NCBI GenBank assembly: GCA_024234635.1
Contig: JACKNX010000009.1
Span: 66,616-130,615, forward strand
DNA: 64,000 nt
Source of the DNA: Pseudomonadales bacterium
GTDB lineage: Bacteria > Pseudomonadota > Gammaproteobacteria > Pseudomonadales > Azotimanducaceae
Direction of reading: 5' to 3'
Below, piece by piece: positions 3,519 through 64,000 of this stretch (position 1 is its first letter; every line of letters begins with the position of its first letter). The notes below the pieces were generated by a model. That model was not told the DNA's origin, ran no database searches, and was given only the letters and a program-made list of their open reading frames with translations. The translations under genes and the position numbers were made by a program.

Positions 3519-3540
3519 GATCGTTTCTCCTTATGCGCGC

Positions 3541-6313: not shown

Positions 6314-6622
6314 TGCCGCCACCCCTGTCGATTTGCCGTATTCCCAACCTGATCCTTCACCGGGCAGCTCCGGGGGAACTGCCCGTTACTGACACAGGCG
6401 CAAATACCGTCCAAACCGGTTCAGGCGCGACGAATCGGGGTTGCGACTGTCAGCTCGACGACAACGCACGTTAAAAAAGTCCCGGCCGGTGAACCGTTTT
6501 TCCCCCGGATTTCCGCCTGTACCGGTGCAGCTCGAGCATCCCGGCCGCCCCTCATGGGCCACCGCGAACGCGCTGCACGCAGCGGCATTGCCGCGGACGA
6601 CAACCGAAAAGGCAGGTGGGCA

Positions 6623-8416: not shown

Positions 8417-8475
8417 GACATCGCCCACGTCTGCCTTCACCCCTTCGAATCGAGTGTGGCACGCCGCGTTCCGGC

Positions 8476-8828: not shown

Positions 8829-11555
8829 TCACCGTCGACGCACGAGCTGCGAGGTGGGTGTGCGCAACTGATCACCCCGCAGATCGAACGGAAACGGCGC
8901 CATGGGCGGCGGATACACGGGCACACAGCCCTGATAGGCACAGTTCTGTCCACCCTCGATTCGCAGTTGCAGCTGGTTCCCCTGCACCGCGTAACGCCCC
9001 CACAACTCCATGCGCTGACTGTTGTTGAACGCGGTTTCCACCTGACGGAATTCGCCTGCGGCGGAAAATTCGACCTGCAGGTAGCTGACGGCTGTCTGTC
9101 CTTCCCAGTAACCCACCAGGGGATTGCGGGGTGCCTGCGGTGTGACGGGTGGCTGGTTGCCACCGTCAGGCGCGGGCACGCCACCATCGAGCCGCGCGGT
9201 ACGCGTGACTTCGATGATGTTGCCCACTGCATGGCCTGCGCCGCCGATCAGCGTCTTGATCCACAGGGTGTCGGGGCGAGCGGGATCGGCCAGCAGCAGG
9301 AAGGTGTCGCGCCCCATGATGCGCTTGCCATCCTGGGAGACGGTGAGCAGGTGCAGCGACGGCAACAGCCGGTTGTCGAGACGGGCCAGGAACTGGAAGT
9401 CACGGATTTCGGGCGCCAGCAGATCCTTGTTGATCAGCAGCCGCGCCAGATTGCTGCCCGGCTCGGTTTCTGCCTCGATACCAAACGCCGGCTGTCCCGA
9501 ATCATCCGCCCACACGCCCGCCAGCGCCGCCATGGTCAATTTGCGCGCGCCCTCCAGGCCCGCCCGAATGTCGGCGCGCGGCGGCACCACCCGAACAGTG
9601 GCACTGTTGCTGCCGGTATCGCCGGTGAGGGTTTCGGCAATCGCCCACGACCGGTAATCCCCTTCGGGCACTTCATCGAGAATGAGTTCCAGTCCCTGCT
9701 TCCAGGGCATGCGGGCGCCCTTCATCAACTGCGGCTCGCCAGTGTCCGGGATGAAGTCGTACAGCAGGGTCAGCATGTCGTCCGCCGCCGGCTCCACCTC
9801 GCGGGGAACCAGGCGACCGCCGCTCTGCTCGACAAGCAGCACCACGCTTTCGGCGCGCCAGGACACCAGGTCAAACAGCACAACCGCCTGGTGGGTGCCC
9901 TCCTTGGCGCTTTCCAGCAGCACCTGAATGCCGGCGGTTCTGCCCTGCCCCGTCTGCAGCGCCCGCGAGTCCAGCGTCGCAAACCCCGCGACCTCGCCGT
10001 TCGTCACGGCATAGGTCATGGGCGCCACCTCCATCTCCATGCGCGCGACGTCGCCTTTGAAGTCCGGCATCAGCAGATCCGCCGCGCTCCCCTTGGCCGC
10101 CAGTTTCTGGGCCAGGAAACGGCTGTCCGAGAGATAACCGTTGCTGTAGATCAGGTGGCCCTTCTGCTCCGGTACGTAACGCCCCACGAGCCCGGATACC
10201 CACAGCAGGTTGGCGCCCTCCACTTCGATCTTCAGCGTGGAGTTGTCGAGCATCGAGCCTTCCTGCACCGGCGTGGTGGTGCCGGCCTTCACGTACGCCA
10301 TGCGCCGGACCGTGGGCGCACGCTTGTTGGCCGTCTGCTGTTCGTGCAGACGCGCCAGCCAGCGCGGCCAGTTGCTCGCGCCGGCGAAACGGGTTTTGAG
10401 ATAGTCCGCGTTGAAAGCGCTGGCAAGCGGTGGCGCGTAGACAGACAGGCCGTGGCTGTTGTGATGCCGCTGCGAGACATGGCTGTCCATGACGGCCGCG
10501 TCCATCGCCCGGACCAGCGCCTGGTATTCCTGCTCGGCCGGAAAGCGCTGGCCCATGGCGTTGCGCATGCGCTTGAGAATGTCCATGAGGTCGGAGCTGG
10601 CGAGCGCCGCCGTGCCCCGTTTCAGTGCTTCGGCCTTGCCGCTGACTTCGAAGCTGTCGGCCCAGAACAGCGATCGGGAGATTACGGGCCAATCCGTCGA
10701 CAGCACGCCGTCCAGCCGCACGAGCAGCGCGTTGAGCGCCCCGTTCACATCGCCAAGCGCGCGCAGATCGATGGCCGACTGGGTGGCAACCAGTTCATTG
10801 ACCGAGTCGGTGTACTCCGCATACCGGCGCACCACCGACTGCGCCAGTCGCCGCGGACCGCGGGCGCTCTGGCCGAATTCCGGCAACAGTACGGCATATG
10901 GCCAGCCGTAGGAGGGCTCCACCGCCTGGGACGCCACCATGAAGTCCGCCACGTCGGCAATCTCCCAGGCCATTTCGAGCTGCGCCATGAGACACATGTC
11001 GAAACCGATGAGGTCGAGCCGACGGCCCGCTGGCAACGCCGCGCGCAGGGCCGCGCCCACCTCGGTGATGGACAGGTTGTCATGCTCGCCGGCGCCAGCG
11101 GGGTCCAGATCGTCGGCCATGCCCTGCCAGCCGCCGCCGTGATCCCACAGCACCAGGCCGGTGTGCTTGGCCGGAAAGTTCGTGGTGACAAAACGCACGA
11201 AGTCGGTCAGGGAGGCCGGGGCGCCCGTATTGATCTCACCCAGGCGCACCAGTTCCTGCAGCGCCAGCGTCCCCTGGTCCTGATTCGGCCGCATGCGCAG
11301 CACACGCGCGTCCGTCCAGTCGCCGACACCGTCGGCATAGCCCTTCGCCCGGTCCATGAGCACGATGACTTCCATGCCGGTTGCCGGCATGCCGGCTTCG
11401 ATCTCGTCGAGATCGATCAGCGCCGCCTGCTCGAGATCGTTGTCCGCGGCCATGTAGATCATCAGCGTCCAGTCCAGCGGCGCCTGCTCGGCACGCACCG
11501 GCACCGCCAGCATCGCGCAAGCCAGGAAGAGCGCCCCAAGCAGCTCGCTACGCAT
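8829..11555 (-). CDS. secreted clostripain-family (C11) cysteine peptidase with a long C-terminal extension
   Basis: Signal peptide LGALFLACAMLAVPVRA. LMIYMAADNDLE, LVLWDHGGGW (His) and LIGFDMCLMAQLE (Cys) are the C11 His/Cys dyad contexts. 908 aa. Confidence 0.85.
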   Translation of the reverse strand: MRSELLGALFLACAMLAVPVRAEQAPLDWTLMIYMAADNDLEQAALIDLDEIEAGMPATGMEVIVLMDRAKGYADGVGDWTDARVLRMRPNQDQGTLALQELVRLGEINTGAPASLTDFVRFVTTNFPAKHTGLVLWDHGGGWQGMADDLDPAGAGEHDNLSITEVGAALRAALPAGRRLDLIGFDMCLMAQLEMAWEIADVADFMVASQAVEPSYGWPYAVLLPEFGQSARGPRRLAQSVVRRYAEYTDSVNELVATQSAIDLRALGDVNGALNALLVRLDGVLSTDWPVISRSLFWADSFEVSGKAEALKRGTAALASSDLMDILKRMRNAMGQRFPAEQEYQALVRAMDAAVMDSHVSQRHHNSHGLSVYAPPLASAFNADYLKTRFAGASNWPRWLARLHEQQTANKRAPTVRRMAYVKAGTTTPVQEGSMLDNSTLKIEVEGANLLWVSGLVGRYVPEQKGHLIYSNGYLSDSRFLAQKLAAKGSAADLLMPDFKGDVARMEMEVAPMTYAVTNGEVAGFATLDSRALQTGQGRTAGIQVLLESAKEGTHQAVVLFDLVSWRAESVVLLVEQSGGRLVPREVEPAADDMLTLLYDFIPDTGEPQLMKGARMPWKQGLELILDEVPEGDYRSWAIAETLTGDTGSNSATVRVVPPRADIRAGLEGARKLTMAALAGVWADDSGQPAFGIEAETEPGSNLARLLINKDLLAPEIRDFQFLARLDNRLLPSLHLLTVSQDGKRIMGRDTFLLLADPARPDTLWIKTLIGGAGHAVGNIIEVTRTARLDGGVPAPDGGNQPPVTPQAPRNPLVGYWEGQTAVSYLQVEFSAAGEFRQVETAFNNSQRMELWGRYAVQGNQLQLRIEGGQNCAYQGCVPVYPPPMAPFPFDLRGDQLRTPTSQLVRRR

Positions 11556-14946: not shown

Positions 14947-14965
14947 CCCGTGGCGGAGACCCGCC

Positions 14966-15982: not shown

Positions 15983-16514
15983 TGAACTCCATCTCCAGTT
16001 CGCACCGGTCGGCGCCGCGATGCATGCACACGTCATGCGCGATGCGACAACGTTCACCGAAATGATCCGCCGCACCCTGCACGAGGCCTTCGGCCAGCGC
16101 ACAGAGCCGCCGCGGTGACCGGTAGACCATCGTCAACGCGTCCGGCCGGTCGTCGCGATAGCGGAACTCCGGTAGCCCCGCGTCCGGGAACAGTTTGCGC
16201 ACCTCCTTGTGCACCACCGCGTCAACGGTGAGCAGGAACTGCTTCAGGGTCTGGCCTTCCGGAAAGAACATCGGATACTGCTCGACGAATGCGGGCATCA
16301 TGTAGCGTCCGAACGCCGGCACCAGCGCCGAAGCCTCGATACCGGTGGCTTTCGATGCCGCCTCCACGAGCGCATAGAGTTCCTCGTCCGGATACGATTC
16401 GGTCGCGACATAGACCCCTTCCAGGCCGGTCGCGAGCAACAGACCATCCCACGCTTCGATGCCATAGCTGGACTCGACCATGTCCGCCAGGATGTTGAAC
16501 ACAACTCCTTTCAC
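15972..16514 (-). CDS. hnoX: H-NOX (heme-NO/O2 binding) sensor protein
   Basis: (M/V)KGVVFNILADMVE N-terminus, candidate proximal His in DAVVHKEVRKLFP, and Y-x-S-x-R motif (MVYRSPRRL). GTG start overlaps the upstream stop (GTGA). Confidence 0.85.
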   Translation of the reverse strand: MKGVVFNILADMVESSYGIEAWDGLLLATGLEGVYVATESYPDEELYALVEAASKATGIEASALVPAFGRYMMPAFVEQYPMFFPEGQTLKQFLLTVDAVVHKEVRKLFPDAGLPEFRYRDDRPDALTMVYRSPRRLCALAEGLVQGAADHFGERCRIAHDVCMHRGADRCELEMEFNAA

Positions 16515-19487: not shown

Positions 19488-19687
19488 GGCCGCTCGACTG
19501 ACAAGATGGGGCCAGTCTATTTCAGGGGCGCCGACGGAGACTTCGAATCACGCCACACTTCACATATCACGAACAAAAAAGGCCTTCACACCAAAGGCAA
19601 AACCGGCATGGAAGAGCGTGTGATGTTTTGTCAAAATAAACTGTTAAGCCACCGACGGAACCCGGTCGCGAAGGCGAACTGGCGGCG

Positions 19688-20773
19688 TCAGTTTTCCGGC
19701 AGTACCTGCGTGATGGCCTGCACCAGGTCCTCGAGCGCTGAAGCAGCGTCAGACCGCACGGTAATGTGACCCACCTTGCGCCCTGCTCTTGGCTGCTTGT
19801 CATAGTCGTGCACGTGCACGTCGGCATGCTTCAACACGGCGTCGATATCCGGCAGCTTGCCGATGCAGTTGAGCATGGCGGTGCAGCCCAGCGGGGCGGT
19901 ATCGCCGAGCGGTAAACCACACACCGCGCGCACGTGATTTTCGAACTGACTGGTACACGCCCCCTCGATGGTCCAGTGCCCGGAATTATGCACACGCGGT
20001 GCCATCTCGTTGGCATACAGCCCCTGTGGGGTATCGAACAGTTCCAGCGCCAGGACGCCGACATAGTCCAGATGCGCCAGGAGGCGTGCCGCGTATTCCT
20101 GCGCTGTGGTGGCGGCGGGGTCCTCCCGCCGACAGCGGGAGATGCGCAGGATGCCGTCGCGATGGACGTTTTCGGACACGGGATAGAAGGCTGTGGCGCC
20201 ATCGCGGCCACGCGCCGCCACCATGGAAATTTCACGCGTGAAAGTCACGAAGCTTTCGAGAATGAGTGGTACACCGCCCAGCCGTTCCCATGCGGCCGCC
20301 ACGTCATCCGCCGTACGCAGTACCGCCTGTCCCTTGCCGTCGTAACCCAGCGTGCGGGTCTTGAGTACCGCGGGGAGTCCCAGTTCCGCCACCGCGCGCC
20401 GCAGGTCCGTTTCGGCGTCAACGAGCACGTACGGCGGTACGGGGATGGCCAGATCACGAAACAGTTGCTTCTCCGACGCGCGGTCGCGCGAGGCGGCCAG
20501 CGCACGCGGATGCGGGTACACCGGTACCCGATCCAGCAGGCGCTGCATGCCGTCGGCCGGCACGTTTTCAAACTCGTAGGTGACGACGTCACTGGCATCG
20601 GCAAGCGCATCCAATGCGGCGGGATCGTCATAGGCACCAACGATATGCCTGCCAAGCGCGGCGGCGCCGGCATCGGCCGCCGGGTCCAGGAACGTGAAAC
20701 GCATGCCAAGCGGGATTCCCGCCAGGGCCAGCATCCGCGCGAGTTGCCCGCCGCCGACGATACCGATGCGCAT
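19688..20773 (-). CDS. purK: N5-carboxyaminoimidazole ribonucleotide synthase
   Basis: MRIGIVGGGQLARMLALAG start (ATG 20771-20773), ATP-grasp body, immediately downstream of purE. Confidence 0.9.
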   Translation of the reverse strand: MRIGIVGGGQLARMLALAGIPLGMRFTFLDPAADAGAAALGRHIVGAYDDPAALDALADASDVVTYEFENVPADGMQRLLDRVPVYPHPRALAASRDRASEKQLFRDLAIPVPPYVLVDAETDLRRAVAELGLPAVLKTRTLGYDGKGQAVLRTADDVAAAWERLGGVPLILESFVTFTREISMVAARGRDGATAFYPVSENVHRDGILRISRCRREDPAATTAQEYAARLLAHLDYVGVLALELFDTPQGLYANEMAPRVHNSGHWTIEGACTSQFENHVRAVCGLPLGDTAPLGCTAMLNCIGKLPDIDAVLKHADVHVHDYDKQPRAGRKVGHITVRSDAASALEDLVQAITQVLPEN

Positions 20774-20774
20774 G

Positions 20775-21266
20775 TCAGCCTGCCCGCGGGTCGGGCGAGT
20801 CGAGGACCGTGGCTGTCTGCCGTTCCCGATAGGCGGCCAGCGCATCGCGAACCTTCGGCTTACCGAGGCCGACAATGGCGGCGGCGAGCAGCCCGGCGTT
20901 CACCGCACCCGCCCGGCCAATGGCCATGGTGCCCACCGCAATGCCGGCAGGCATCTGCACGATGGAGAGCAGCGAATCCACGCCGTTCAGCGTCTTCGAC
21001 TGGATGGGCACACCCAGTACAGGGAGTACCGTTTTCGACGCCGTCATGCCCGGCAGGTGCGCGGCACCGCCGGCCCCGGCAACGATGACCCGCAGTCCCC
21101 GCGCTTCCGCCCCGGCCGCATATTCAAACATCAGATCCGGGGTGCGGTGCGCTGAGACCACCCGGGTTTCGAAGGGCACGCCGACCTCCTCGAGCGTGGC
21201 GCAGACGTGCTGCATCGTCTCCCAGTCGGATTTCGACCCCATGATGACGCCAACCAGCGGTTTCAC
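20775..21266 (-). CDS. purE: N5-carboxyaminoimidazole ribonucleotide mutase
   Basis: [17 protein letters not shown] and [11 protein letters not shown] motifs. 163 aa. Confidence 0.95.
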
Positions 21267-21396
21267 GAGGGGCAGCTCCAGTGTCTCGCAACGCCGGGCG
21301 GGGCCAGGGCAGGGCAGGTGATGGGCATCGGTACCATCCGCTTTTCACACGGCGCGAAGGGTACCAGAGCCGCCGGAGATGGCGACACCGGGATGT

Positions 21397-22368
21397 CTAC
21401 AACCAGCCCCGTCGCTTGAAGAGCAGGTAAGGCAGTACCGCCGAGATCACCATGAGCAGTATCGCCAGCGGATAACCGACCGGCCAGTGCAGTTCCGGCA
21501 TGAACTGGAAATTCATGCCGTAAATCGAGGCAATGAGCGTCGGTGGCAGGAACACCACCGCGGCCACGGAGAAAAATTTGATGATGCCGTTCTGTTCGAT
21601 GTTGATCAGTCCCAGCGTGGCATCGAGAAGAAAGGTTGCCTTCTGCGTCAGCGAGTCGGTGTGATCCACCAGCGAGTGCAGATCACGGGACATGGTTTTG
21701 ATGCGATTGCGCACCTCCTTCTCCTGGCGCAACGGCTGGATGGCCTGCGACAGGTAGCCCAACACCCGGTCAAGCGACATGAGGCATTCGCGCACGTTGG
21801 AATTGAGGTCCCCCTGGGCGCCGATCTGCTCGAGAATCGTCTGCAGATTCGCTTCGCGGCGATTTCGCCGACCGCGATTGCGGAACACCATGGCCGACAG
21901 CGCCGCGATGTCCCGGCCTGCCCGCTCCAGGATATCCGCCATGCGATCGATCTGGGCTTCCAGCAGCGCCAGCAACACGCCTTCGCCGTCCTGACAGCCC
22001 AACGCCACCTTGGACGCGCGCGTTGGCATGGTGCGGAATGCCCGCGGTTCGGAATAGCGAATCGTGACCAGCCGGTGCTGCGTGAGGACAAAAGTGACCG
22101 GTGAAATGATGGGATGTTCGGTTTCCGTGCGCGACGGCAGCGTCGCCGTCATGAATACGGCGCCATCTTCCGTGTACAGACGCGACGACACCTCGATCTC
22201 GTCCATCTCCTCACGCGTGGGAATGGCGATGCCGAGCGCCTTCTCGAGCGCCGATTCTTCATCTGGCGTGGGTTCCATCAGGTCGATCCACACCACACCG
22301 TCCAACTGGGCGGGATCGCCGCGCGTGGACAGCAGGCGGTCCTGTTCATTGAGATACGCGCTGATCAT
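21397..22368 (-). CDS. corA: CorA magnesium/cobalt transporter
   Basis: C-terminal YGMNFQFMPEL (GMN motif) followed by two TM helices. ATG 22366-22368 behind GCAGGAGG. Confidence 0.9.
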   Translation of the reverse strand: MISAYLNEQDRLLSTRGDPAQLDGVVWIDLMEPTPDEESALEKALGIAIPTREEMDEIEVSSRLYTEDGAVFMTATLPSRTETEHPIISPVTFVLTQHRLVTIRYSEPRAFRTMPTRASKVALGCQDGEGVLLALLEAQIDRMADILERAGRDIAALSAMVFRNRGRRNRREANLQTILEQIGAQGDLNSNVRECLMSLDRVLGYLSQAIQPLRQEKEVRNRIKTMSRDLHSLVDHTDSLTQKATFLLDATLGLINIEQNGIIKFFSVAAVVFLPPTLIASIYGMNFQFMPELHWPVGYPLAILLMVISAVLPYLLFKRRGWL

Positions 22369-22672
22369 GCCGACAACCTCCTGCGCACCATCACCCTGCC
22401 TGTGCCCGTTGCCGGGAACTCTGACATTCCCCGACGTCGCGGTGCAAGCCGCCATACGGCACATCGCCGGCGGGATGCGCGCGCAATGGCACATCGACCA
22501 GCGGCCATTGCTCCGTCGCAGCAATTTGTTGCGCGCCAGTACGCGCGGAAGCGTCGTGAGCAAGGCGCATCACGCGGGCAACGCAGCGTGCCCGCCCGGG
22601 ACGCAGCGCTGCCACGGGCGCCTCCGAGCATCCCGGGGGCGCATGCCACGATGCGACGAATCGGGACTCCAG

Positions 22673-55412: not shown

Positions 55413-55958
55413 ATGACAGACGTTACACAGATTCTCCAGAGCTGGTCACAACAGTCCCGTGACGATCGCGGCCGTGTCGTGGCCGCGTTGTACGACGAGC
55501 TGCGCCGCAATGCCGCCAATCATCTGCGCGGCGAACGCGGTGTCGTGGATCTGCAACCCACCTCACTGGTGAACGAGGCGTACTTCCGCCTGGTGAACAT
55601 CGATCGCATCGATCTCAACGGCAGATCCCATTTCCTCGGCCTTGCCGGGCGCATCATGCGTGAGGTGCTGGTGGACGAGGCGCGCAAGCTACGCGCCTCC
55701 AAGAGGGATCAGGCACTGCAGACGCATTTCACCGGCGACTTCGACTCCGGCGCCACGCCACTTACCGACATTCTGCAGGTCGACGAACTGCTCAACGAAC
55801 TCGAGGCCATCGATCCCCAGTACGTGCAACTGTTCGAGGCCCGCGCCTTTGCCGGCATGACCATCGAAGAAGCAGCCCAGATGCTGGACCTGTCGGTTTC
55901 CACCGTTAAACGCAAGTGGAAAGTGGTCATGGCGTGGCTGCGGGAAAAAACCGGCTGA
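55413..55958 (+). CDS. ECF-type sigma-70 factor, Ser/Thr-kinase-associated type, copy 2
   Basis: MTDVTQILQSWSQQ...ALYDELRRNAANHL...LQPTSLVNEAYFRLV...MTIEEAAQMLDLSVSTVKRKWKVVMAWL. Clearly paralogous to 7850-8416. Confidence 0.9.
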   Translation: MTDVTQILQSWSQQSRDDRGRVVAALYDELRRNAANHLRGERGVVDLQPTSLVNEAYFRLVNIDRIDLNGRSHFLGLAGRIMREVLVDEARKLRASKRDQALQTHFTGDFDSGATPLTDILQVDELLNELEAIDPQYVQLFEARAFAGMTIEEAAQMLDLSVSTVKRKWKVVMAWLREKTG

Positions 55959-56007: not shown

Positions 56008-56427
56008 CTACCATCCGTTGCCCTGACCGGGCGGCATGCCACCACCGGACTGCGACCACGCGCCAGGAGCATTCACCGACTGGGGATACTGCTGGCTGGG
56101 CTGCATCGGATACTGGCCGCTCGAAGGCAGATACGCGTTGTTGCCTGGCTGCGACGGCATCATCTGCGGACTGACATAACCACCCGGCATCTGTGCGGCG
56201 TTGGGAGAGACATACCCGCCGCCCGGCATCGGCTGGCAACCCGGCCGCCCCTGCACCATGGCTGGCGCCGTGCCAGGCGGACACTGCTGCGAATAGCTCA
56301 TGCCGCCGCCAGGAACCTGGTTGTAGTAGCCTTCGTTGAACCCGGCGCGAAAGTCATCGGACAGCAGCGCCATCAGCAGAATGGCAGCAACGACGCCCGC
56401 CAGCACTTTCAGAACCATCTTTCCCAT
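56008..56427 (-). CDS. single-pass membrane protein with P/G/Q/Y/M-rich tail
   Basis: ATG 56425-56427 behind GGGAGAA. TM segment VLKVLAGVVAAILLMALL. Tail PGGGMSYSQQCPPG...PGGYVSPQMMPSQPGNNAYLPSSGQYPMQPSQQYPQ...GQGNGW. Confidence 0.65.
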   Translation of the reverse strand: MGKMVLKVLAGVVAAILLMALLSDDFRAGFNEGYYNQVPGGGMSYSQQCPPGTAPAMVQGRPGCQPMPGGGYVSPNAAQMPGGYVSPQMMPSQPGNNAYLPSSGQYPMQPSQQYPQSVNAPGAWSQSGGGMPPGQGNGW

Positions 56428-56731: not shown

Positions 56732-59218
56732 ATGGTGGGCTCCGACTCCGAACGGCAGGCCCGCGCGCTGGAGTTGTTCTTTCGAGCACTGGAGGAGCCG
56801 GCCGCGGACCGAAAAGCGTGGATTGTGCGCAATACGGCGGACAACCTTCCGCTGCAGGAAGCTGTTTTGCGGCTGCACGCGGCGGATACCGAAGCGACTG
56901 ATGCCGCCCCGCTGACACTGATGAACTTCGCGGAGCCCGATCTGACGGGCTCGCGCATCGGCCAGTGGAAGATTGTCGACACCATCGCCTCCGGCGGCAT
57001 GGGTCGCGTCTATCTCGCCGAACGTACGGGCGCTGACTTCCAGCAGCGCGGGGCTCTGAAAATCCTGCGCATTCGGGCCCTCGACAATCCCGCCATCCGC
57101 GACGAACTGCTCCGCCGCTTTAACAACGAACGTCAGATCCTCGCCCACATCCAGCACCCGAACATCGCCTCCATCGTCGACGGAGGCACAACGGATGACG
57201 GTCTGCCGTACCTGGTGATGGAATATGTCTCCGGCCTCTCGTTGACCGAATACCTCCAGGCCCACCCCATCGGTTTGCAGGCGCGTCTGCGGCTGTTCCG
57301 CGAACTGCTGGATGCCGTGGGCGCCGCGCATCGCAGCCTGGTGGTGCACCGCGACATAAAGCCCTCCAACATCATGGTGGACGCCGAAGGTCACCTGAAA
57401 CTCCTGGACTTCGGTATTGCCAAGGTACTCGAGCCACGCGACGGGATGGCGTCCACCGATACCGCCACGGCCACCCAGGCCATGACGCCGGACTTTGCCA
57501 GCCCGGAGCAGTTGCTCGGCCGGCCCATCACGGTGGCGAGCGATATCTATTCGCTCGGACTTCTGCTGTATCGCCTGCTTGCCGGCGTAGCCGCCTATAC
57601 CGTCAGCAACCGCTCGCCGGTGGAAGCGCATGCCCTCGTCTGCCTTCGCGATCCGCCGCTGCCGAGCAAATCCGCAACGGAAGGACATGATCCCGCGGTA
57701 CCCGGCTGGCGCCTGAAAGGCGACCTCGACGCCATCGTCATGAAAGCCATCCGCAAGGAGCCGCAGGAACGCTATGGGTCCACGGTGGAGTTTGCCGCCG
57801 ATATCGAGCGTTTTCTGGGCGGCTTGCCAGTACTCGCCCAACGCAACAGCGCGCGCTATCGGGCGAAGAAATTCATCCGCCGCAACTGGCTGGCCGTGAC
57901 AAGTACGACCACGATCATTCTGACGCTGACGGCAGGCCTGGCGGTGTCATTGTGGCAGTACGCCAACGCCGAAGCCGCAACCCGGCGCGCTGAAGACGAG
58001 AAAGACAAGGCGAACGCCGTCGTCGAGTTTCTGCAGGAAGTGCTGTCGCAGGCGGATCCACTGGAAACCGGCACCAATCCCACCATCCGGGAAGCCCTGG
58101 ATCAGGCGGAGTCGAAGCTGGGTGATCGCTTCGACGATCATCCGGAGATTGAGGCCGCGGTTCGCCACACACTTGGCTGGACACAGATGAGCCTGGGACA
58201 CACCGATCTTGCGGTGGACAACCTGTACAAAGCCTATCAGCTGAACGAAGCACACTATGGACCAACGCATGAGGATACGTTGCGGTCGCTGTCCGCGCTG
58301 GGATGGATGAGCTTCGACAGGCTCGACTTCGACAAGTCACGCGAATACTACAAGATGGCCATAGAGCGCTTCTCGGAGGACGTGCCGAAGGTACTGCGAG
58401 CGACCATCCTCAACGACTATGCGGTGACACTGGACGGCGCAGGCGAGTCCGCGGCCGCCATCGCGCCATTCGAGGAAGCCGTGCGCCTCTACCGGCAGTC
58501 GAACCCATCCGAGCCCGGCTACGATCTTGGTAGCGCCCTGTCGAATCTGGGTGTGGCATACCAGGGCATCGGTAACTTCGAGCGCGCGGAACAGCTGTTC
58601 AAACAGCACATTGCCATGGCGGAGTCCGGAGAAGACGATTCCAAGTACGCGTTTTTTTCCGTTCTCAACAACTACTCGCTGTTGCTCAGGGATACAGGCC
58701 GTCTCGACGAAGCCCTGGTTCAACTGCGGCGCTCCGTGCGCATGCGCTACGAATTACTCGGGCCCGAACATCCGAGCAGCATCCTGGCGGGCAACAACCT
58801 CACCATGCTGCTCTTGCAGATGCACCGGCTGGATGAAGCGCGCGCCAACCATCTGAGCGTCGCACCCGCTGCCGCCGGGCTGGGTATCACGCACCGCCAT
58901 GCCCTGCGCGTGCGCCTGACCGGCAGCATGCTCGAGAACGAACTCGGCAACCGGAGTTCCGCCATCACCGACGCGCAAGCCATCCTCGTGGATCTGCAGC
59001 CAATGGCGGAAGGCGAATACCAGGAAATCCGCGCCCAGGTTTGCATGCATCTCGGCGAGATGCTCAGTCAGGACGGGCAACACGAGCGTGCCCTCGTGTT
59101 GATGCAAGAAGCCATTGCCCAGCGTACGGCCTACTACGGCGCGAACCATCGGAATACCGAGCAGGCAAGACAGCGCGCGAACGTCGTGCGCGCCGCGGCA
59201 CAGGCGCCAGCTACCTGA
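56732..59218 (+). CDS. Ser/Thr protein kinase with N-terminal pre-kinase segment, one TM helix and TPR repeats
   Basis: GSRIGQWKIVDTIASGGMGRVYLA, HRDIKPSNIMV, DFGIAK, SPEQ. TM segment WLAVTSTTTIILTLTAGLAVSLW. TPR-like repeats run to the C-terminus. Confidence 0.9.
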   Translation: MVGSDSERQARALELFFRALEEPAADRKAWIVRNTADNLPLQEAVLRLHAADTEATDAAPLTLMNFAEPDLTGSRIGQWKIVDTIASGGMGRVYLAERTGADFQQRGALKILRIRALDNPAIRDELLRRFNNERQILAHIQHPNIASIVDGGTTDDGLPYLVMEYVSGLSLTEYLQAHPIGLQARLRLFRELLDAVGAAHRSLVVHRDIKPSNIMVDAEGHLKLLDFGIAKVLEPRDGMASTDTATATQAMTPDFASPEQLLGRPITVASDIYSLGLLLYRLLAGVAAYTVSNRSPVEAHALVCLRDPPLPSKSATEGHDPAVPGWRLKGDLDAIVMKAIRKEPQERYGSTVEFAADIERFLGGLPVLAQRNSARYRAKKFIRRNWLAVTSTTTIILTLTAGLAVSLWQYANAEAATRRAEDEKDKANAVVEFLQEVLSQADPLETGTNPTIREALDQAESKLGDRFDDHPEIEAAVRHTLGWTQMSLGHTDLAVDNLYKAYQLNEAHYGPTHEDTLRSLSALGWMSFDRLDFDKSREYYKMAIERFSEDVPKVLRATILNDYAVTLDGAGESAAAIAPFEEAVRLYRQSNPSEPGYDLGSALSNLGVAYQGIGNFERAEQLFKQHIAMAESGEDDSKYAFFSVLNNYSLLLRDTGRLDEALVQLRRSVRMRYELLGPEHPSSILAGNNLTMLLLQMHRLDEARANHLSVAPAAAGLGITHRHALRVRLTGSMLENELGNRSSAITDAQAILVDLQPMAEGEYQEIRAQVCMHLGEMLSQDGQHERALVLMQEAIAQRTAYYGANHRNTEQARQRANVVRAAAQAPAT

Positions 59219-59257: not shown

Positions 59258-60103
59258 CTACGACGTAACGTCGGCTGTTGCATCGGCGTATCCGAATTCG
59301 ACCTGCAGTGCTCGGGCCTCGTCGTCGCCTTCCTCCACCGCCTTGTCCAGCCACGCGCGCGCCGCGTCATCATCCCTGCTGATGCCGTCGCCAGCGTGCA
59401 GCATTCGGGCCAGGACACGCATGGCCTGCGTATGACCCTGGTCCGCCGCGCTCCAGTACCAGCGTGCCGCTTCCCCCTTGTCGGCACCAACGCCTTCGCC
59501 CTTGAAATACATGACCCCGAGGTTGAACTGCGACTGCGCGTGCCCCGCTTCCGCTGCCAGGCGGAAGTGCTTCACTGCCTGTACTGCGTCCATCGCGCGC
59601 CCCTCGCCCGCGGCATAGGCGTAACCGAGCTGACCGTGCGCTTCCACGTGACCCTGCGCCGCAGCCCGGTCATACCAGCCGAGAGCCGCCTCCAGATTCC
59701 TGTCGACACCGTCACCGAACTCCAGTGCGTGCCCCAGCCAGTACTGGCTGGGCACATCGCCCATCTCGGCTCCCTTGCGGTAGTACCAGACAGCGTGCGC
59801 ACGGTTGCGCGGAAAGGGATCCACGCCATTCGTTGAAGTATTCGATCCCTGCCAGTACGCATTGCCGAGCAGCCTGTGGGCCACCGGGTCGCCCTGACTC
59901 GCCCTTTCGTTGAGCGCCTCAATCGTCGTCGGCTCGATTCCTTCGGTGGCGATGAGTACTTCCGCCGGACGATCTTCATAGACCTTCACGACCAGCGTGC
60001 TGTCCCGGAACGTCGTTGTCGTTGTGGACCACGCGCCACGCTCGCAGCCGGCGAGCAGCAACGCCACCAGGGCAACACAGGACGGGCTGACAATGCTGCG
60101 CAT
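59258..60103 (-). CDS. Sel1-repeat lipoprotein
   Basis: ATG 60101-60103 behind GAGGGGAG. Lipobox LLLAGC. At least five Sel1-type repeats (A..WY.KAA.QG...A...LG..Y..G.GV). Confidence 0.8.
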   Translation of the reverse strand: MRSIVSPSCVALVALLLAGCERGAWSTTTTTFRDSTLVVKVYEDRPAEVLIATEGIEPTTIEALNERASQGDPVAHRLLGNAYWQGSNTSTNGVDPFPRNRAHAVWYYRKGAEMGDVPSQYWLGHALEFGDGVDRNLEAALGWYDRAAAQGHVEAHGQLGYAYAAGEGRAMDAVQAVKHFRLAAEAGHAQSQFNLGVMYFKGEGVGADKGEAARWYWSAADQGHTQAMRVLARMLHAGDGISRDDDAARAWLDKAVEEGDDEARALQVEFGYADATADVTS

Positions 60104-60272
60104 ACTCCCCTCGCTTTTCTGTTCGTCTGGAGCAATAGGCGGATTCGTTGCTGGAACCGGCTCAGGAAGGTTTGCCGCCGGCGGCAGGCGGCCATCGGCA
60201 GCTGCCCGGCCGTACAGGCCAATACGAGTACAGGATCTGGACGGTGGATGCGCGGCTGGCGATTCAACACGC

Positions 60273-60298
60273 CGGCGCACGACAGCCACCCGTGGGGG
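60273..60298 (-). terminator. 10-bp GC-rich stem-loop just after the peptide gene (attenuator or partial terminator; no U-tract)
   Basis: Minus strand: CAGCCACCCG-CCCCCA-CGGGTGGCTG, beginning about 27 nt after the TAG stop. Confidence 0.4.
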
Positions 60299-60324
60299 GC
60301 GGGTGGCTGTGACGAGGCAGGCGA

Positions 60325-60534
60325 CTAGCTGCGCAGGTAGTCGAGGAACGCCGAGTTGTGTGCGTCGAACATCTGGCCGCGTTGAATCCAGCTGTTCTGC
60401 AGCGCGTAGCCCCACGGATTGTAGTAAGGGTTGAACACGTTGTAGTAGTAGAACCAGCCGCCTCGCGTGGCGGAAAGCTCCTCCGCGGTGAGGGTACGGG
60501 TATCGTCGAGGTCGTTCAGTTGAATATGGCTCAT
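60325..60534 (-). CDS. 69-aa precursor peptide with double-glycine-type leader and aromatic-rich 43-aa core
   Basis: ATG 60532-60534 behind GGAGAA. Leader MSHIQLNDLDDTRTLTAEELSATRGG has E-L at -8/-7, L at -12 and GG at -2/-1. Core WFYYYNVFNPYYNPWGYALQNSWIQRGQMFDAHNSAFLDYLRS. Confidence 0.6.
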   Translation of the reverse strand: MSHIQLNDLDDTRTLTAEELSATRGGWFYYYNVFNPYYNPWGYALQNSWIQRGQMFDAHNSAFLDYLRS

Positions 60535-60596
60535 GGTGTTCTCCGACGTTGTTCGTGGTCTTGTTTCGCGGCTCAACGCTGCGTCACCGTAGCAAT

Positions 60597-60612
60597 TGCA
60601 GGGTACGTGCCA
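60597..60612 (-). promoter_or_regulatory. sigma54 (-24/-12) promoter
   Basis: Minus-strand TGGCACGTACCCTGCA versus consensus TGGCACG-N4-TTGCW, with one mismatch and GG-N10-GC spacing exact. About 60 nt upstream of the peptide ATG. Confidence 0.65.
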
Positions 60613-60650
60613 ACCTGGCCAACACGCTGTCAAAAAATTTCAACCTGTTG

Positions 60651-60663
60651 ATTATCATCAGAT
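60651..60663 (-). promoter_or_regulatory. IHF-binding site consensus
   Basis: Minus-strand AATCAACAGGTTG fits WATCAANNNNTTR at every specified position. About 40-50 nt upstream of the -24 element, inside an AT-rich stretch. Confidence 0.45.
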
Positions 60664-60863
60664 TTATCTTCATCACCCGCCACCGGAGGTCTGCGCTCAG
60701 GTTCCGAAAAATACGTTTCAAGCCAAACAGATTCATGCAGGTGTTTGTTCAAATCCAACTTTTTCATCGGGTCCGTCGCGGATGAGCCGATTTTGACTCC
60801 CGCTTCGCCTAAAGGGTGTAGCCACAGTTTTCATCATCCGGACCCGGGACGACGTTTCACCCC

Positions 60864-62561
60864 ATGCACGAACAGCAGACTACGCAGGCGTCCACACCCG
60901 ATCGCATCGGTCGGTACGAAATCACCGGTCGACTGGGAACCGGCGCGATGGCCGAGATCTTTCGGGCGCGCGACCCCGACATCGATCGCGTGGTTGCCAT
61001 CAAGTTGCTCAAGCACACCTGGCAGGAGGAGCGCGACCTCGAGCGATTCACGCGCGAGGCGCGCGCAGCGGGCGCATTGACGCATCCGAACATCGTGACC
61101 GTCTATGACGTCGGCCGATTCGCCGGACGCCCGTACCTGACCATGGAATTGCTTGAGGGACCGACGCTTGAGGCGCTGATGGCCACCGGAGACCTGTTGA
61201 GTCACAGGCAGGTTCTCGAACTGGCGATTGCCCTCGCCCGGGCGCTGCACTATGCGCACGAAAACAATGTGGTGCACCGGGACATCAAGCCCAGCAACAT
61301 TCTGTTCGCGCACGACAGCCTGAATCCGAAGATTGCCGACTTCGGCATCGCACGTCTGGAAAACGGTGAGCAGACCCTGCAGACCGGCGGGCATCTGGTC
61401 ATCGGCACACCGAGGTACATGTCACCGGAACAGGCGCTGGGTGAGACCGTCGACCGACGCTCGGACCTGTTCTCGCTGGGCGTGGTGCTTTTTGAGCTGC
61501 TGACGGGAGAGAAAGCATTCGATGCACCAACCACAACGTCGTTGCTGATACAGATCGCCAGGGACAAGCCACGCTCGTTCCGTGACACCGCAGGCGACGT
61601 GCCAATGGGTCTGCAGCAGATCGTGCGCAAGCTGCTGGAGAAGAATCCGCAGCGCCGATACCAGACCGGCGCGGCGCTTGCCGATGCACTGCAGCGCGAA
61701 CTGGAAGCCGTGATAGAACGCGAGGCGGACGCCGGTCGCAACCGCTACGTTCCGCTGCGCGTACGCTGGTCGGCCGCAATGGGGGCCATCGTGGCGCTGG
61801 TACTCGGCGCGAGCATCTTCACCGTCGTAACCATCCAGTCACGCGTGATCCGCACACAGGTTGAAGACGCCGGCGCGGCGCTCGCCCGATTCATTGCCAA
61901 CGAGGCGTCGACACCGCTGCTGGGTGAAGACTGGGTAGCACTGGAGTCGTTCGTCGAAGAAGCACGTCGACGGGATACGATTGCCTACCTGACGATCTTC
62001 GATCACGACGGCATCGCCCGCGCCAGCACCATCCAGGCACAACGCATGCGACGGGATAACCGGGAGACGCACGTCGGCGACAGGCACATCACGGACCTGA
62101 CGCTCTCAGATGGCTCGCCAGTTCTGGACTTCGAGACGGCGGTGCAGTTTCAGGACACCCGTATCGGTCACCTCAGACTGGGGCTGACCCGAAGCGGCTT
62201 CGACAGCCTGATGGCAACCACCTGGTCGCTGATGATCGTGCTCGGGCTTGTTACGGCAGCTGCGGTGGTGGCAACGCTCTACGTCTTCGGCAGTCTGCTC
62301 ACGCGCCCACTGCGGCTCCTGGCGGGCTCGATGCAGGCCTTCGGCTCAGGAGACTGGGATCATCGGCCAACGTCCGTGCGTACCGACGAGATCGGGCAAC
62401 TGTACACAGCATTCAATCAGATGGCGGATGCCGTGCAACACCAGCTGAACGGCGGACACATCGACGTTGCACCAGCGCCGACCCCACGCAAGCGTACCGG
62501 CACGCGGCCACCGGACGCTTCCGACCCGGAAGCCACCGTCGTGCTGACCGTACCGAAGTGA
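60864..62561 (+). CDS. membrane Ser/Thr protein kinase with extracytoplasmic region and C-terminal HAMP domain
   Basis: GRYEITGRLGTGAMAEIFRA, AIKLL, HRDIKPSNILF, DFGIARL, SPEQ. TM helices (AMGAIVALVLGASIFTVV; LMIVLGLVTAAAVVATLYVFGSLL). HAMP-like RPLRLLAGSMQAF...DEIGQLYTAFNQMADAV. Confidence 0.85.
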   Translation: MHEQQTTQASTPDRIGRYEITGRLGTGAMAEIFRARDPDIDRVVAIKLLKHTWQEERDLERFTREARAAGALTHPNIVTVYDVGRFAGRPYLTMELLEGPTLEALMATGDLLSHRQVLELAIALARALHYAHENNVVHRDIKPSNILFAHDSLNPKIADFGIARLENGEQTLQTGGHLVIGTPRYMSPEQALGETVDRRSDLFSLGVVLFELLTGEKAFDAPTTTSLLIQIARDKPRSFRDTAGDVPMGLQQIVRKLLEKNPQRRYQTGAALADALQRELEAVIEREADAGRNRYVPLRVRWSAAMGAIVALVLGASIFTVVTIQSRVIRTQVEDAGAALARFIANEASTPLLGEDWVALESFVEEARRRDTIAYLTIFDHDGIARASTIQAQRMRRDNRETHVGDRHITDLTLSDGSPVLDFETAVQFQDTRIGHLRLGLTRSGFDSLMATTWSLMIVLGLVTAAAVVATLYVFGSLLTRPLRLLAGSMQAFGSGDWDHRPTSVRTDEIGQLYTAFNQMADAVQHQLNGGHIDVAPAPTPRKRTGTRPPDASDPEATVVLTVPK

Positions 62562-63577
62562 TGACACGGGCAATCACCTGCTGCTTGCTGACACTGGGGT
62601 TGCTCGGCGGCTGCGCACATGTACCGCCGGCGGCCGACGTCGCCATTCCGTCTATCGGCCAGCCCATCGGACAGACCGGCTTCTTTACGCTGGTGCAAGC
62701 CAGCGAAGCGATCACGCTACGGGAAATGACCCGCCGGTTACTCGGTGAGGAAGATCTCGCGGAGCTCGTCGCCCGCGCCAATGCCCTGCCCGTCGACACA
62801 ATCGTCGCCAGCGGGCAGATCATCGCCCTGCCGAGAAAACCCATTCATTCGTCGGGCATATCACCCCACGGCATCCAGACCGTGCAGATTCTCTGTTATC
62901 ACCGCTTTTCCCTGCGAGCGTCATCGGAGCCGATGACCGTCTCAGCCGCCGATTTCGAGGCCCAGATGGCCTATCTCGTGAACAATGGTTATCGGGTCAT
63001 CCGCCTCGCGGAGCTCGCGGGCTTCATGGAAGGCGGGACGCTCTTCCCGGAACGGCTGGTTGTCATAACCATCGATGACGGCTTTGCATCGGTAGCTGAG
63101 GTTGCCGCTCCCATACTTGCGAAATACGGTCTGCCGGCGACGCTGTTCGTCTACCCGGAATTCATCGGTGGCGGTCTGGCGCTCAGCTGGGATGCGCTGA
63201 AGGCGCTGGCGGACAGCGGACTGTTCGACGTGCAGTCCCACTCCACCAGCCACACCAGCCATGCCCGGCGCCCCCAGGAGAGCGACGAAGCGTATCGCCA
63301 ACGGCTGGACCGGGAAATCGACACCGCCAGCCGCAGCCTCGCCGGGCATCTTGGACGGGCGCCATCCGTCTATGCCTATCCGTACGGTGACACCAGCACG
63401 GATACCATCCACGCCCTGCAGGCACGCCAATACCGCTTCGGGGTCACGGTGCGGCGCGGTGGAACAGCCGCGTTCAGCCATCCGTTCACGCTGCGTCGCA
63501 CCATGATCTACGGACACGACTCGCTCGCGCAGTTCGCCCGCAAACTGGTCACGCGCCAGCCGCTGCCCCGGGGATGA
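62561..63577 (+). CDS. lipoprotein with LysM domain and NodB-type polysaccharide deacetylase domain
   Basis: Lipobox LLGGC. LysM-like YTLVQASEAITLREM...GQIIALP. NodB motifs ITIDDGF, YPYG, HSTSH. Start overlaps the kinase stop (GTGATGA). Confidence 0.8.
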   Translation: MTRAITCCLLTLGLLGGCAHVPPAADVAIPSIGQPIGQTGFFTLVQASEAITLREMTRRLLGEEDLAELVARANALPVDTIVASGQIIALPRKPIHSSGISPHGIQTVQILCYHRFSLRASSEPMTVSAADFEAQMAYLVNNGYRVIRLAELAGFMEGGTLFPERLVVITIDDGFASVAEVAAPILAKYGLPATLFVYPEFIGGGLALSWDALKALADSGLFDVQSHSTSHTSHARRPQESDEAYRQRLDREIDTASRSLAGHLGRAPSVYAYPYGDTSTDTIHALQARQYRFGVTVRRGGTAAFSHPFTLRRTMIYGHDSLAQFARKLVTRQPLPRG

Positions 63578-64000
63578 AGCCGGCAGCATCACTGGCGCTG
63601 GTACTGCTTGCGGGTTGCCAGGCGGCGCCACGACCCGACCACGCTGACAGGGACCCGCACGTTGTTGAATTCGTCGAAAGGCAATCGGTTCTGGCGCGCC
63701 GACAGCAGCGCGATGGCGACTTCGCCGCCGCCATCGCAACGTGGGAGGCGGTGCGACTCGTCGCACCTGACGATGACCGGGTCGGCCGGCTGCACCAGTT
63801 GCAGACGCTGCGGCGACTGCGTATCGCCGGGCTGGAGGCGCAACTCAGGGCCACCAGCAGCGCGGCGCGGCGGCGCGCGATCTGTCTCGACATCCTGGCG
63901 CTGGAGGGCGGCCATCAAGGCGCCATCGACATTCTGCGCGCACAGGAACTGAGAGACGCGCTGCACAATGCCGCGCCCGTGCCGGACAAACCGCCTTACC
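63573..64000 (+). CDS. lipoprotein (helical/TPR-like?), 3' end beyond the window
   Basis: ATG 63573 overlaps the upstream stop (ATGA). MKPAASLALVLLAGC lipobox. Frame is open to the window end (hand translation). Confidence 0.55.

Follow-up and report, generated by a model that had tools for sequence, protein, structure and literature searches.

A double-glycine precursor peptide as probable cargo of a sigma-54-linked peptidase-ABC export cassette in a Pseudomonadales bacterium

What does a short, aromatic-rich open reading frame (ORF) in a Pseudomonadales genome encode, and how would its product leave the cell? The ORF lies on the minus strand at 60325..60534 of a 64,000-nucleotide (nt) stretch of contig JACKNX010000009.1 (assembly GCA_024234635.1; the whole stretch is called the window here). 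The original prediction, made from the letters of this stretch, described a precursor gene with a double-glycine (GG) leader, the substrate type for C39-peptidase ATP-binding cassette (ABC) exporters, and this description is supported by the leader, the peptide family and the exporter reported below. In our reading, to which we give a probability of about 0.8, the ORF encodes a sigma-54-controlled GG precursor that would be cleaved after Gly26 and exported by a neighbouring type I system, whose peptidase-ABC exporter carries domains of the cyclic nucleotide monophosphate (cNMP)-binding type. This genome would then hold two cargo genes for a dedicated type I secretion system, and the peptide gene would be one of them.

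The 69-residue ORF is present exactly as it had been quoted. It starts with ATG at 60534 and ends with a TAG stop at 60327-60325 (69 codons plus stop), and its annotation is based on the sequence, the homologues, a codon comparison with a paralogue, the G+C content at third codon positions (GC3) and the mass. The product consists of a 26-residue leader, MSHIQLNDLDDTRTLTAEELSATRGG (60534-60457), followed by a 43-residue core, WFYYYNVFNPYYNPWGYALQNSWIQRGQMFDAHNSAFLDYLRS (60456-60328), which begins WFYYYN and ends LRS. The predicted core length of 43 residues is correct, while the count of 15 aromatic residues has to be lowered to 14 (3 Trp, 4 Phe and 7 Tyr; 33% of the core). The core also contains 8 Asn or Gln residues (19%), no Cys and no Lys, has an isoelectric point (pI) of 6.7, and has a calculated unmodified monoisotopic mass of 5404.47 Da. 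The announced ribosome-binding site GGAGAA is found at 60539..60544 (minus strand), 4 nt 5' of the ATG, and GGAGA or GAGG equivalents precede the start in every homologue. The stem-loop said to stand right after the stop is likewise there: an 11-bp G+C-rich hairpin with a loop of 7 nt (ACAGCCACCCG / CGGGTGGCTGT; 60282..60310, minus strand) begins 14 nt 3' of the stop and, with its flanks, reaches -32.3 kcal/mol (z = -4.05; 0 of 200 shuffles were equally stable). A different hairpin occupies the equivalent position after the stop of the paralogue. A scan of 59900-61000 for intrinsic terminators gave no match; it is blind to this hairpin because the hairpin has no T-run.

Whether the ORF is a gene at all has to be settled before its function. 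It is short, has no family annotation and stands in an intergenic-looking setting, as would a chance ORF in an intergenic regulatory region or an RNA element. Neither Pfam nor NCBIfam matched the peptide even at E <= 10, and Rfam gave no match at E <= 1 on 59800-61000, for which reason a known RNA was dropped as an explanation. The GC3 of the ORF is 0.75, in line with genuine genes of this 64% G+C genome, and this value, like the empty Rfam search, argues against a chance ORF. A search of 5.8 billion proteins retrieved the identical protein from two metagenome-assembled genomes of Pseudomonadales, together with five homologues that are 49-58% identical, and a profile search of 1.8 billion representatives, followed by a second profile search, extended the family to about 30 sequence clusters of 66-111 residues. 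More than 30 homologues agree in length, start, GG position and ribosome-binding site, which also speaks against chance. The homology and profile searches that had been proposed as a check retrieved about 30 clusters with a conserved core.

Comparison of the two paralogues of this genome is decisive. Over the whole gene, 21 codons differ synonymously and 9 non-synonymously; in the core these counts are 10 and 2, and the flanks cannot be aligned. The excess of synonymous changes between unalignable flanks effectively refutes a chance ORF, and we consider that explanation hardly credible. An unconserved ORF within conserved surroundings had been named as the pattern that would speak against a gene; between the paralogues the reverse is seen, with the core kept and the flanks unalignable. 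By these sequence comparisons, the ORF is a genuine, conserved gene of a family for which Pfam and NCBIfam hold no model.

Alignment of 24 family members revealed an invariant GG that ends leaders of 25-26 residues, and the leaders follow the pattern M-x-x-I-x-[IL]-N-D-[LI]...L...[LM]....GG. The N-terminal part of the family cores is aromatic-rich, of low complexity (rich in Y, F, W, G, N and P) and variable in length, and the C-terminal part is a conserved module, NPF..[LM]Q.SW..RG..FD..HN.FI.FLRS. Across the family the core is better conserved than the leader, and the leaders drift; core identity between genera is 49-80%. None of the 30 family cores contains a Cys.

The leader places the precursor, on core sequence criteria, in the substrate class of GG-leader peptidase-ABC exporters. 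GG closes the 26-residue N-terminal leader, and the positions highlighted in the original prediction, GG at -2/-1 (residues 25-26), Glu-8, Leu-7 and Leu-12, are all confirmed in the sequence. According to Ishii 2010 as quoted in PMC6363468, ComA recognises Leu(-12)-X3-Glu(-8)-Leu(-7) with hydrophobic residues at -4 and -15. Leu-12, Glu-8 and Leu-7 of this leader fit the core of that consensus, and Thr at both -4 and -15 is not hydrophobic. Across the family, -12 is Leu, Met or Ile and -7 is mostly Leu or Met, and -8 is variable. A leader regular expression derived from these loci has this ORF as its sole six-frame match in the window, and in the other loci it matches cargo genes only.

An exporter for such a substrate is found just past the window end, where the original prediction had seen no C39-ABC exporter adjacent to the gene. 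Over its final 7233 nt, the window agrees with contig JACKNW010000003.1 (GCA_024234695.1) except for 4 mismatches, and window position 64000 corresponds to position 15833 of locus L017. The bridge to the cassette, on the plus strand at 62558..64000, consists of a polysaccharide deacetylase gene (62558-63577) and the first 142 codons of a 269-residue lipoprotein gene. Past the window end follow the rest of this lipoprotein gene and genes for a LysM protein, a sigma-54 activator (416 residues), a 1021-residue exporter, a 247-residue rotamase, a HlyD/AprE adaptor, an 815-residue FHA protein and an outer-membrane efflux protein; a second peptide gene, MSHIELNNLDETRTLSTSELSAARGG-WFFYYNVFNPYYNPWGYALQNSWIQRGQMFDAQNSAFLDYLRS, is divergent from the gene of this outer-membrane channel. 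If the window numbering is carried on, the cassette extends over about 64.6-76.5 kb; its exporter gene falls at about 66767-69832 and the second copy of the peptide gene at about 76304-76513. Located on the same contig, the exporter gene is about 2.8 kb beyond the window end and 6.2 kb away from the peptide gene. The apparent lack of an exporter was a window-edge artefact, because the cassette starts beyond the window end, and it carries the practical warning that exporter absence judged from a fixed window can be of this kind.

The exporter combines cNMP-binding, Peptidase_C39, ABC-membrane and ABC-ATPase domains (PF00027, PF03412, PF00664 and PF00005, respectively), and two cNMP-like segments, residues 1-130 and 150-270, were read by eye. 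Its C39 domain aligns with those of LahT150, ComA and PCAT1 (E ~1e-23 to 1e-20), and in the ComA and LahT150 alignments the Q-x5-C motif, His and Asp are in place (VQQAEEMDCG...; HFIVVYG...; VADP). Since Gln, Cys, His and Asp are intact, the domain is predicted to be a true protease, unlike the degenerate domain of the HlyB type, and one contig encodes both this catalytically complete C39 domain and the precursor. Two further proposed checks, a genome search for a peptidase-containing ABC exporter and one for paralogous GG-leader peptides, thus led to the same place, a cNMP-C39-ABC exporter beside the second peptide copy, and the suspicion that the genome might encode no GG-processing peptidase is removed by the intact C39 domain.

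Among the accessory proteins of the cassette, the rotamase is PpiC/SurA-like and has no signal peptide, and by analogy it may serve as a cytoplasmic holdase for the very aromatic cargo. In the FHA protein, a single transmembrane segment (321-346) separates two FHA domains in the cytoplasm from a helical domain of about 470 residues in the periplasm; among solved structures, the FHA domain of Rv1747, an ABC transporter under kinase regulation, is closest to this protein. A sequence search of solved structures with the periplasmic domain returned FHA domains only. This domain (FHA protein at L017 5337-7784) has no Pfam, NCBIfam or PDB sequence match and, as a core part of the secretion system, is 30-40% identical in all cassettes.

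The same cassette adjoins family members in four other loci, L002, L001, L026 and L028. The order in L002 is activator, exporter, rotamase, HlyD, FHA protein, channel and peptide, and L001 contains the FHA protein, the channel, two tandem peptides and a PP2C phosphatase. The exporters closest to this one are 64-73% identical to it. Four of these exporters (66-68%) lie on contigs equal in length to contigs that carry family peptides (44008, 12568, 184693 and 59893 nt), and for the 59893- and 44008-nt contigs the DNA was read and found to contain both exporter and peptide. More than 1,200 exporter homologues were retrieved at E <= 1e-50, the best 120 of which are all at least 58% identical; their hosts include Halieaceae, Competibacteraceae, Methylococcales and Cupriavidus.

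The cassettes of Parahaliea mediterranea and Cupriavidus sp. BIS7 encode exporters about 60% identical to this one in equal gene order, with unrelated cargo of 57-106 residues. Their cargo leaders keep a common register (Asp-19, Leu or Ile-18, Leu-12, Leu or Met-7, GG), and the cores are rich in Asn, Gln and Gly. In Parahaliea mediterranea (L018) the cargo genes are at 3014-3700 and 14357-16829, the promoter-proximal ones with a sigma-54 promoter; in Cupriavidus sp. BIS7 (L019) they are at 3092-3355 and 15331-15621, of which the latter has a sigma-54 promoter and the former a variant ending TGCG. These cassettes hold up to seven GG-leader cargo genes, some with curli-like GGNG motifs.

Tandem copies were also observed in Halieaceae from Tara Oceans and other marine metagenomes (L023/L024, 8058-20213), with three to four tandem 70-residue family genes, then genes for a TPR-OmpA protein, a Sel1-fused Ser/Thr kinase, a CHAT protease and a two-partner secretion pair. 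The three translated copies of L023 have identical cores and two different leaders, and a fourth copy was called in L024. The Halieaceae variant P0148 occurs in 104 blocks of the collection and so is abundant in the ocean. The contexts of peptides P0007 and P0012 were contigs of 0.8-2.5 kb, which gave the promoter and a downstream TPR protein.

The promoter is the probable link between the peptide gene and the cassette. A promoter of its own had been predicted for the gene, and one is present, of the sigma-54 type, while a sigma-70 promoter scan of 59900-61000 gave no match. The near-consensus -24/-12 element, TGGCACGTACCCTGCA (60597..60612, minus strand), ends 63 nt upstream of the ATG, and TGGCACN5YTGCW has this single match on both strands of the window (chance expectation 0.24). 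A longer ORF with a TTG start at 60633 is ruled out because the promoter would lie inside it. Comparison of the other loci revealed a sigma-54 element 57-108 nt upstream of cargo in L001, L002, L014, L015, L017 (both copies), L018-L020 and L023-L028. The element usually continues as CTGCAAT and precedes single genes, the first gene of a tandem pair and each of the 3-4 Halieaceae tandem copies; elsewhere in the related loci there are almost no matches. It can accordingly be used as a diagnostic mark of cargo genes even when these are scattered in a genome. In L018, a sigma-54 promoter was also seen before a Sel1 and Peptidase_C14 gene (19182-22460).

About 28 nt upstream of the -24 element, an IHF-like site read from the sequence, AATCAACAGGTTG (60641..60653, minus strand; fits WATCAANNNNTTR), is followed by a T-run, and AT-rich ATCAA-N4-TT elements are similarly placed in the promoters of the paralogue, L015, L023 and L018. 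IHF would be expected to bind here, as is typical of sigma-54 promoter architecture. A 45-codon ORF at 60633-60767 (minus strand), called as a gene in public assemblies, overlaps the IHF and upstream region of the promoter; 2 of its 45 residues differ between near-identical assemblies, and it is probably not a gene.

A sigma-54 activator that lacks a receiver domain is present in every cassette, and the sigma-54-dependent promoter would tie the peptide gene to this activator. The simplest reading is a regulon in which the cassette activator would drive cargo genes wherever they are located, which would explain the orphan copies: the window gene and those of L014 and L015, the latter two surrounded by unrelated housekeeping genes.

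The proposed pathway can be put together from these parts. The cassette activator would switch on the -24/-12 promoter at 60612-60597, helped by IHF-type bending, and the 69-residue precursor would be made, its aromatic core perhaps held soluble by the cytoplasmic PpiC/SurA-like chaperone. The C39 domain of the exporter would recognise the leader through Leu-12, Glu-8, Leu-7 and GG and cut after Gly26, and the ABC part would carry the 43-residue core out of the cell by way of the HlyD adaptor and the outer-membrane channel. Export may be gated at two points, by a ligand at the two N-terminal cNMP-type domains, in analogy to HetC, and by Ser/Thr kinase and PP2C signalling read by the 815-residue FHA protein, in analogy to Rv1747 and the threonine-phosphorylation pathway of the type VI secretion system (T6SS). 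On these analogies, export is probably gated by phospho-threonine signalling and a small ligand. For the product outside the cell, the probable site of action is the cell envelope, where the secreted Sel1/TPR proteins and receptor-type kinases encoded repeatedly beside these genes would mediate its effect.

Several observations weigh against this sigma-54-controlled export pathway. Family members in L014, L015 and L023-L025 have no cassette within the DNA examined, for which reason their pairing with an exporter rests on the common promoter and leader, and the hosts of the peptide family are all uncultured metagenome-assembled genomes. In this genome, five unrelated-looking genes separate the peptide gene from the exporter. 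The leader has Thr or Ala at -4, where a large hydrophobic residue is usual, and its 26 residues exceed the length of class II microcin leaders by about 7-11. The exporter reaches none of the NCBIfam equivalog cut-offs, and the rotamase reaches 86.6 bits against TIGR04500 (cut-off 180), matching profile positions 91-336, the SurA-like part. The activator appears linked to the promoter by association, and inspection of the aligned promoters by eye for upstream activator sites gave no clear palindrome, the IHF-like AT-rich element being the only consistent one. Furthermore, no small membrane immunity gene is adjacent to the peptide gene in the window, L001, L002, L017, L026 or L028, and the predicted helix of the product is not strongly amphipathic, which weakens a membrane-lytic mode of action.

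The cassette also differs from the NHLP/Nif11 export systems (TIGR03796/TIGR03797/TIGR03794), with which it shares multi-copy GG precursors and a peptidase-ABC exporter with a HlyD-type protein. TIGR03796 is the second-best NCBIfam match of the exporter, at 556.1 bits against a cut-off of 853.3, and the HlyD protein reaches 38.3 bits against a cut-off of 156.2. The 26-residue leader is unrelated to the long NHLP/Nif11 leader domains, and the peptide has no NCBIfam match at E <= 10.

Given export of the core through the cassette, the next question is whether it is modified on the way. The original prediction had left a bacteriocin, a signal and a precursor of a peptide made on the ribosome and modified after translation (RiPP) side by side; the first two are kept, and the last has become the least likely. 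A RiPP precursor would have its core modified before export by an enzyme encoded elsewhere, for example through aromatic cross-links, hydroxylation or Tyr sulfation. The core has aromatic-x-Asn repeats (YYN, VFN and YYN), which we take to resemble cyclophane-forming motifs. RiPP clusters often encode GG leaders and C39-ABC exporters, and the rotamase resembles the TIGR04500 'putative peptide maturation system protein', of which the member MirC is needed for graspetide formation. MirC is described as a SurA-like, chaperone-type partner protein whose cluster also encodes a C39-ABC exporter (PMC13097080). The rotamase falls short of TIGR04500 (86.6 against 180 bits), with the N-terminal domain of that family uncovered. 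Across the cassette and peptide loci examined, no class-defining modification enzyme recurs, and genes for an ATP-grasp enzyme, radical-SAM enzyme, P450, YcaO, LanM or sulfotransferase are all without recurrence there; the lone P450, found in L026 at a distance of 8 kb, has no conserved counterpart elsewhere. The cores are free of Cys, the core is more conserved than the leader, the reverse of most RiPP families, and the peptide matches no NCBIfam or Pfam precursor model. We therefore regard a RiPP precursor as very unlikely. As no modifying enzyme recurs and no core contains a Cys, the default prediction is an unmodified 43-mer of 5404.47 Da, and by these sequence features the product is most likely unmodified.

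What the exported core would do is less clear than how it would be exported. If export takes place, we would put an antagonistic, bacteriocin-like function first, short of even odds, then a self or kin signal, then a self-assembling or adhesive matrix, and last some other function.

The first of these, a class II microcin-like bacteriocin for which the Sel1 lipoprotein or an unrecognised protein gives self-protection, finds its likeness in the class II microcins, such as MccV/CvaC with CvaAB-TolC of Enterobacteriaceae. Both have a C39-ABC exporter, a membrane-fusion protein and a TolC-type channel, and the peptide here is probably unmodified like theirs; the Gram-negative host, a peptide below 10 kDa and the GG leader with exporter, adaptor and TolC-like channel all favour this role. 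The microcin signal motif is a pre-peptide of <=150 residues with M...R-x-[IL]-x9-G-[GAS] (PMC12219008), and the leader holds the core of this motif, R-x-L-x9-GG (Arg-14, Leu-12, x9, GG), with its Met 11 residues further upstream than in the microcin signals of about 15-19 residues. Conservation of the core while leaders drift is bacteriocin-family-like, the cargo varies between lineages on a conserved exporter, and tandem paralogues exist. The secreted Sel1/TPR protein found downstream in three contexts could be an immunity protein.

The system also differs from these microcins. The leader is 26 residues long against about 15-19, and in no locus does an adjacent gene encode the small transmembrane immunity protein that class II microcins typically have; the neighbours are the Sel1 lipoprotein, kinases and unrelated genes. 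The cassette adds two cNMP domains, the FHA membrane protein, the PpiC/SurA-like protein and a sigma-54 activator with its promoter, and control of this elaborate kind, by sigma-54, kinases, FHA and cNMP domains, sets the system apart from known microcin loci. The core is aromatic and Asn-rich, not Gly/Ser-rich, is neutral (pI 6.7), and is not known to have antibacterial activity. The three copies of L023 encode identical cores, each with its own promoter, which points to dosage rather than diversification. A hydrophobic-moment scan found the C-terminal helix weakly amphipathic. A bacteriocin role is accordingly possible, and we hold it tentatively.

The next gene downstream, at 59258..60103 (minus strand), encodes the Sel1-repeat lipoprotein (281 residues; lipobox LLAGC; Pfam Sel1 1e-34), a candidate periplasmic partner of the peptide. 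A secreted Sel1/TPR protein follows the peptide gene in three independent contexts, here, in L020 and in L023-L025: the L020 TPR-like protein is encoded 18 nt downstream, and the OmpA-fused homologue of L023-L025 is 62% identical. Sel1 repeats are fused to a kinase in L023 and to secreted caspase-like C14 proteases in L018 and L026. On the other side, a Hanks-type Ser/Thr kinase with HAMP (565 residues; 60864..62561, plus strand; Pfam Pkinase 3e-49, HAMP 5e-14) is encoded divergently from the peptide gene with one common regulatory region.

This setting bears on a second role, a diffusible self or kin signal bound by periplasmic Sel1/TPR proteins, free or kinase-fused. Its feedback would run by phospho-signalling through FHA, the sigma-54 activator and a phosphorylated extracytoplasmic function (ECF) sigma factor onto the peptide's own promoter and export. 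The shared regulatory region of peptide and HAMP kinase genes is in keeping with it, and receptor-type Ser/Thr kinases flank the gene here and adjoin the peptide or cassette in L018, L019, L023, L026 and L028, one fused to Sel1 repeats and one to TPRs after a membrane segment. FHA and PP2C components are within or beside the cassette; a PP2C phosphatase, free FHA proteins or further kinases are encoded in L001, L018, L019, L026 and L028. The kinases may merely regulate secretion, as in T6SS. In the T6SS PpkA/PppA/Fha1 set and M. tuberculosis Rv1747, Ser/Thr kinase, PP2C and FHA components are likewise encoded with a transport machine, whereas in this type I cassette a separate bitopic protein, with a 470-residue periplasmic domain, bears the FHA domains, which would be functionally coupled to the system.

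The exporter itself, likened by architecture, has the domain order of HetC of Nostoc PCC 7120: cNMP-binding, C39, ABC membrane and ATPase domains, with a catalytically competent peptidase and presumed ligand gating. HetC, a cNMP-domain peptidase-ABC exporter, is needed for heterocyst differentiation and is proposed to export a differentiation signal, which would favour a signalling role here; its cNMP-type domain binds ppGpp and is required for function, and there is no GG-peptide gene in the vicinity of hetC (PMC10986499). HetC, the best-studied relative of this exporter type, has no known substrate. Here, in contrast, cargo genes are evident, the host is a gammaproteobacterium, and the context includes FHA, PpiC and the sigma-54 activator.

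The Gram-positive GG pheromones ComC and BlpC follow an equivalent export logic (ComC/ComAB and BlpC/BlpAB), with Leu-12, Glu-8, Leu-7 and GG, one protein that both processes and exports, and a precursor gene that adjoins a sensor-kinase gene. Unlike theirs, the system here is Gram-negative and tripartite, and it has Hanks-type kinases with FHA, PP2C and sigma-54 rather than histidine kinases and response regulators. Their cores diversify into pherotypes, whereas this one is strongly conserved between genera (49-80%), and a 5.4-kDa peptide released by a type I system would have no obvious route back into the periplasm. The signal role, taken together with its feedback, consequently seems doubtful to us.

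A third role, as a self-assembling or adhesive matrix peptide (amyloid-like or aromatic and 'sticky') delivered in bulk to the surface, with the chaperone preventing premature aggregation, would draw on the composition: the core is one-third aromatic and 19% Asn/Gln, the N-terminal core of the family is of low complexity and variable length, and the Parahaliea cassette cargo, rich in N, Q and G, contains GGNG motifs like those of curli. That identical genes occur in several copies, each behind a strong promoter of its own, suggests high output. The cytoplasm would hold a dedicated SurA-like chaperone, and the neighbours include envelope or matrix proteins (OmpA-TPR, LysM, polysaccharide deacetylase and autotransporters). 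An AlphaFold model of the precursor, built on the 24-sequence alignment (mean predicted local distance difference test [pLDDT] 74), showed a short helix at 17-21 in the leader, an aromatic segment at 27-39 of irregular structure, and a long helix over residues 40-68 (pLDDT ~77-87). The C-terminal part is predicted as this helix and not as beta structure, and the conserved C-terminal 25 residues resemble a specific interaction module; a matrix role is rather unlikely on this evidence.

Beyond these single roles, the parts might form a Gram-negative peptide cell-cell signalling circuit built from 'eukaryote-like' components. In such a circuit, a sigma-54-driven GG peptide would be released by the ligand-gated cNMP-domain exporter and trimmed after the invariant Arg by a C11, C14 or CHAT protease, and its C-terminal module would be bound by the Sel1/TPR parts of Hanks kinases, with feedback through FHA, the sigma-54 activator and the phosphorylated ECF sigma factor. 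Taken as a whole, the circuit is an unlikely conjecture; if true, it would be a Proteobacterial functional counterpart of ComC/ComAB/ComDE and would provide the first cargo class for HetC-like exporters.

GG peptides with peptidase-ABC export are well known, and the peptide family described here is absent from Pfam, NCBIfam and the literature searched: in full-text searches, neither the peptide sequences nor a cassette that combines C39, cNMP, HlyD, FHA and sigma-54 components turned up. It is an undescribed cargo family of a widespread, uncharacterised cassette, with unusual regulation. The loci supply the cargo genes, a common leader signature and a candidate chain from kinase to FHA protein to activator, with a cNMP-type ligand. 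Export, regulation and role thereby become directly testable, also in Parahaliea mediterranea and Cupriavidus sp. BIS7, which carry the cassette and have been cultured.

Other genes of the window may belong to the same network. At lower window coordinates than the Sel1 lipoprotein gene are genes for an ECF sigma factor of the PF07638 type (55413-55958, plus strand; Pfam), a neighbouring 139-residue membrane protein with a G/P/Q/Y-rich tail (56011-56427, minus strand) and a Ser/Thr kinase with a TPR domain (56732-59218, plus strand; Pfam). Counterparts of all three stand beside the peptide in L028 (ECF sigma 77%, kinase 40% and small membrane protein 35% identical), a conserved neighbourhood from which we infer that the trio belongs to the peptide system. 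An ECF sigma gene beside a TPR Ser/Thr kinase gene presumably resembles the kinase-activated EcfP/PknT pair of Vibrio.

Towards the other end of the window, a secreted clostripain-like Peptidase_C11 of 908 residues (8829..11555, minus strand) is the full-length orthologue of the L028 protease encoded beside the peptide (51% identity over 884 residues). By this relationship it may act in the peptide's functional network, for example by cutting after the invariant Arg, and secreted clan-CD proteases (C11, C14 and CHAT) recur across the loci. The C11 gene adjoins that of a second PF07638 ECF sigma factor (7850-8620, minus strand).

The original prediction had also pointed to a C39-like peptidase at 7282. 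The ORF there (7210-7842, plus strand) encodes a secreted papain-like Peptidase_C70 of the AvrRpt2 family (E 9e-6), with a signal-peptide-like N-terminus, no ABC part and no NCBIfam match, and it was rejected as the processing enzyme. A known anti-phage system was rejected too, as PADLOC gave generic domain-level matches only (kinase to PD-T4-6, AAA+ to RtcR-like and cNMP domain to Pycsar).

The two ECF sigma factors of the window (7850-8620, minus strand; 55413-55958, plus strand) are paralogues with 73% identity. The products of 6554-7282 (plus strand) and 56011-56427 (minus strand) are predicted single-pass membrane proteins with low-complexity tails rich in Pro, Gly, Tyr and Gln. The ORF at 6554-7282 failed the GC3 filter and may not be a real gene; its product contains PGYGP repeats and is 33% identical (E 2e-8) to that of 56011-56427, and each of the two adjoins one of the ECF sigma genes.

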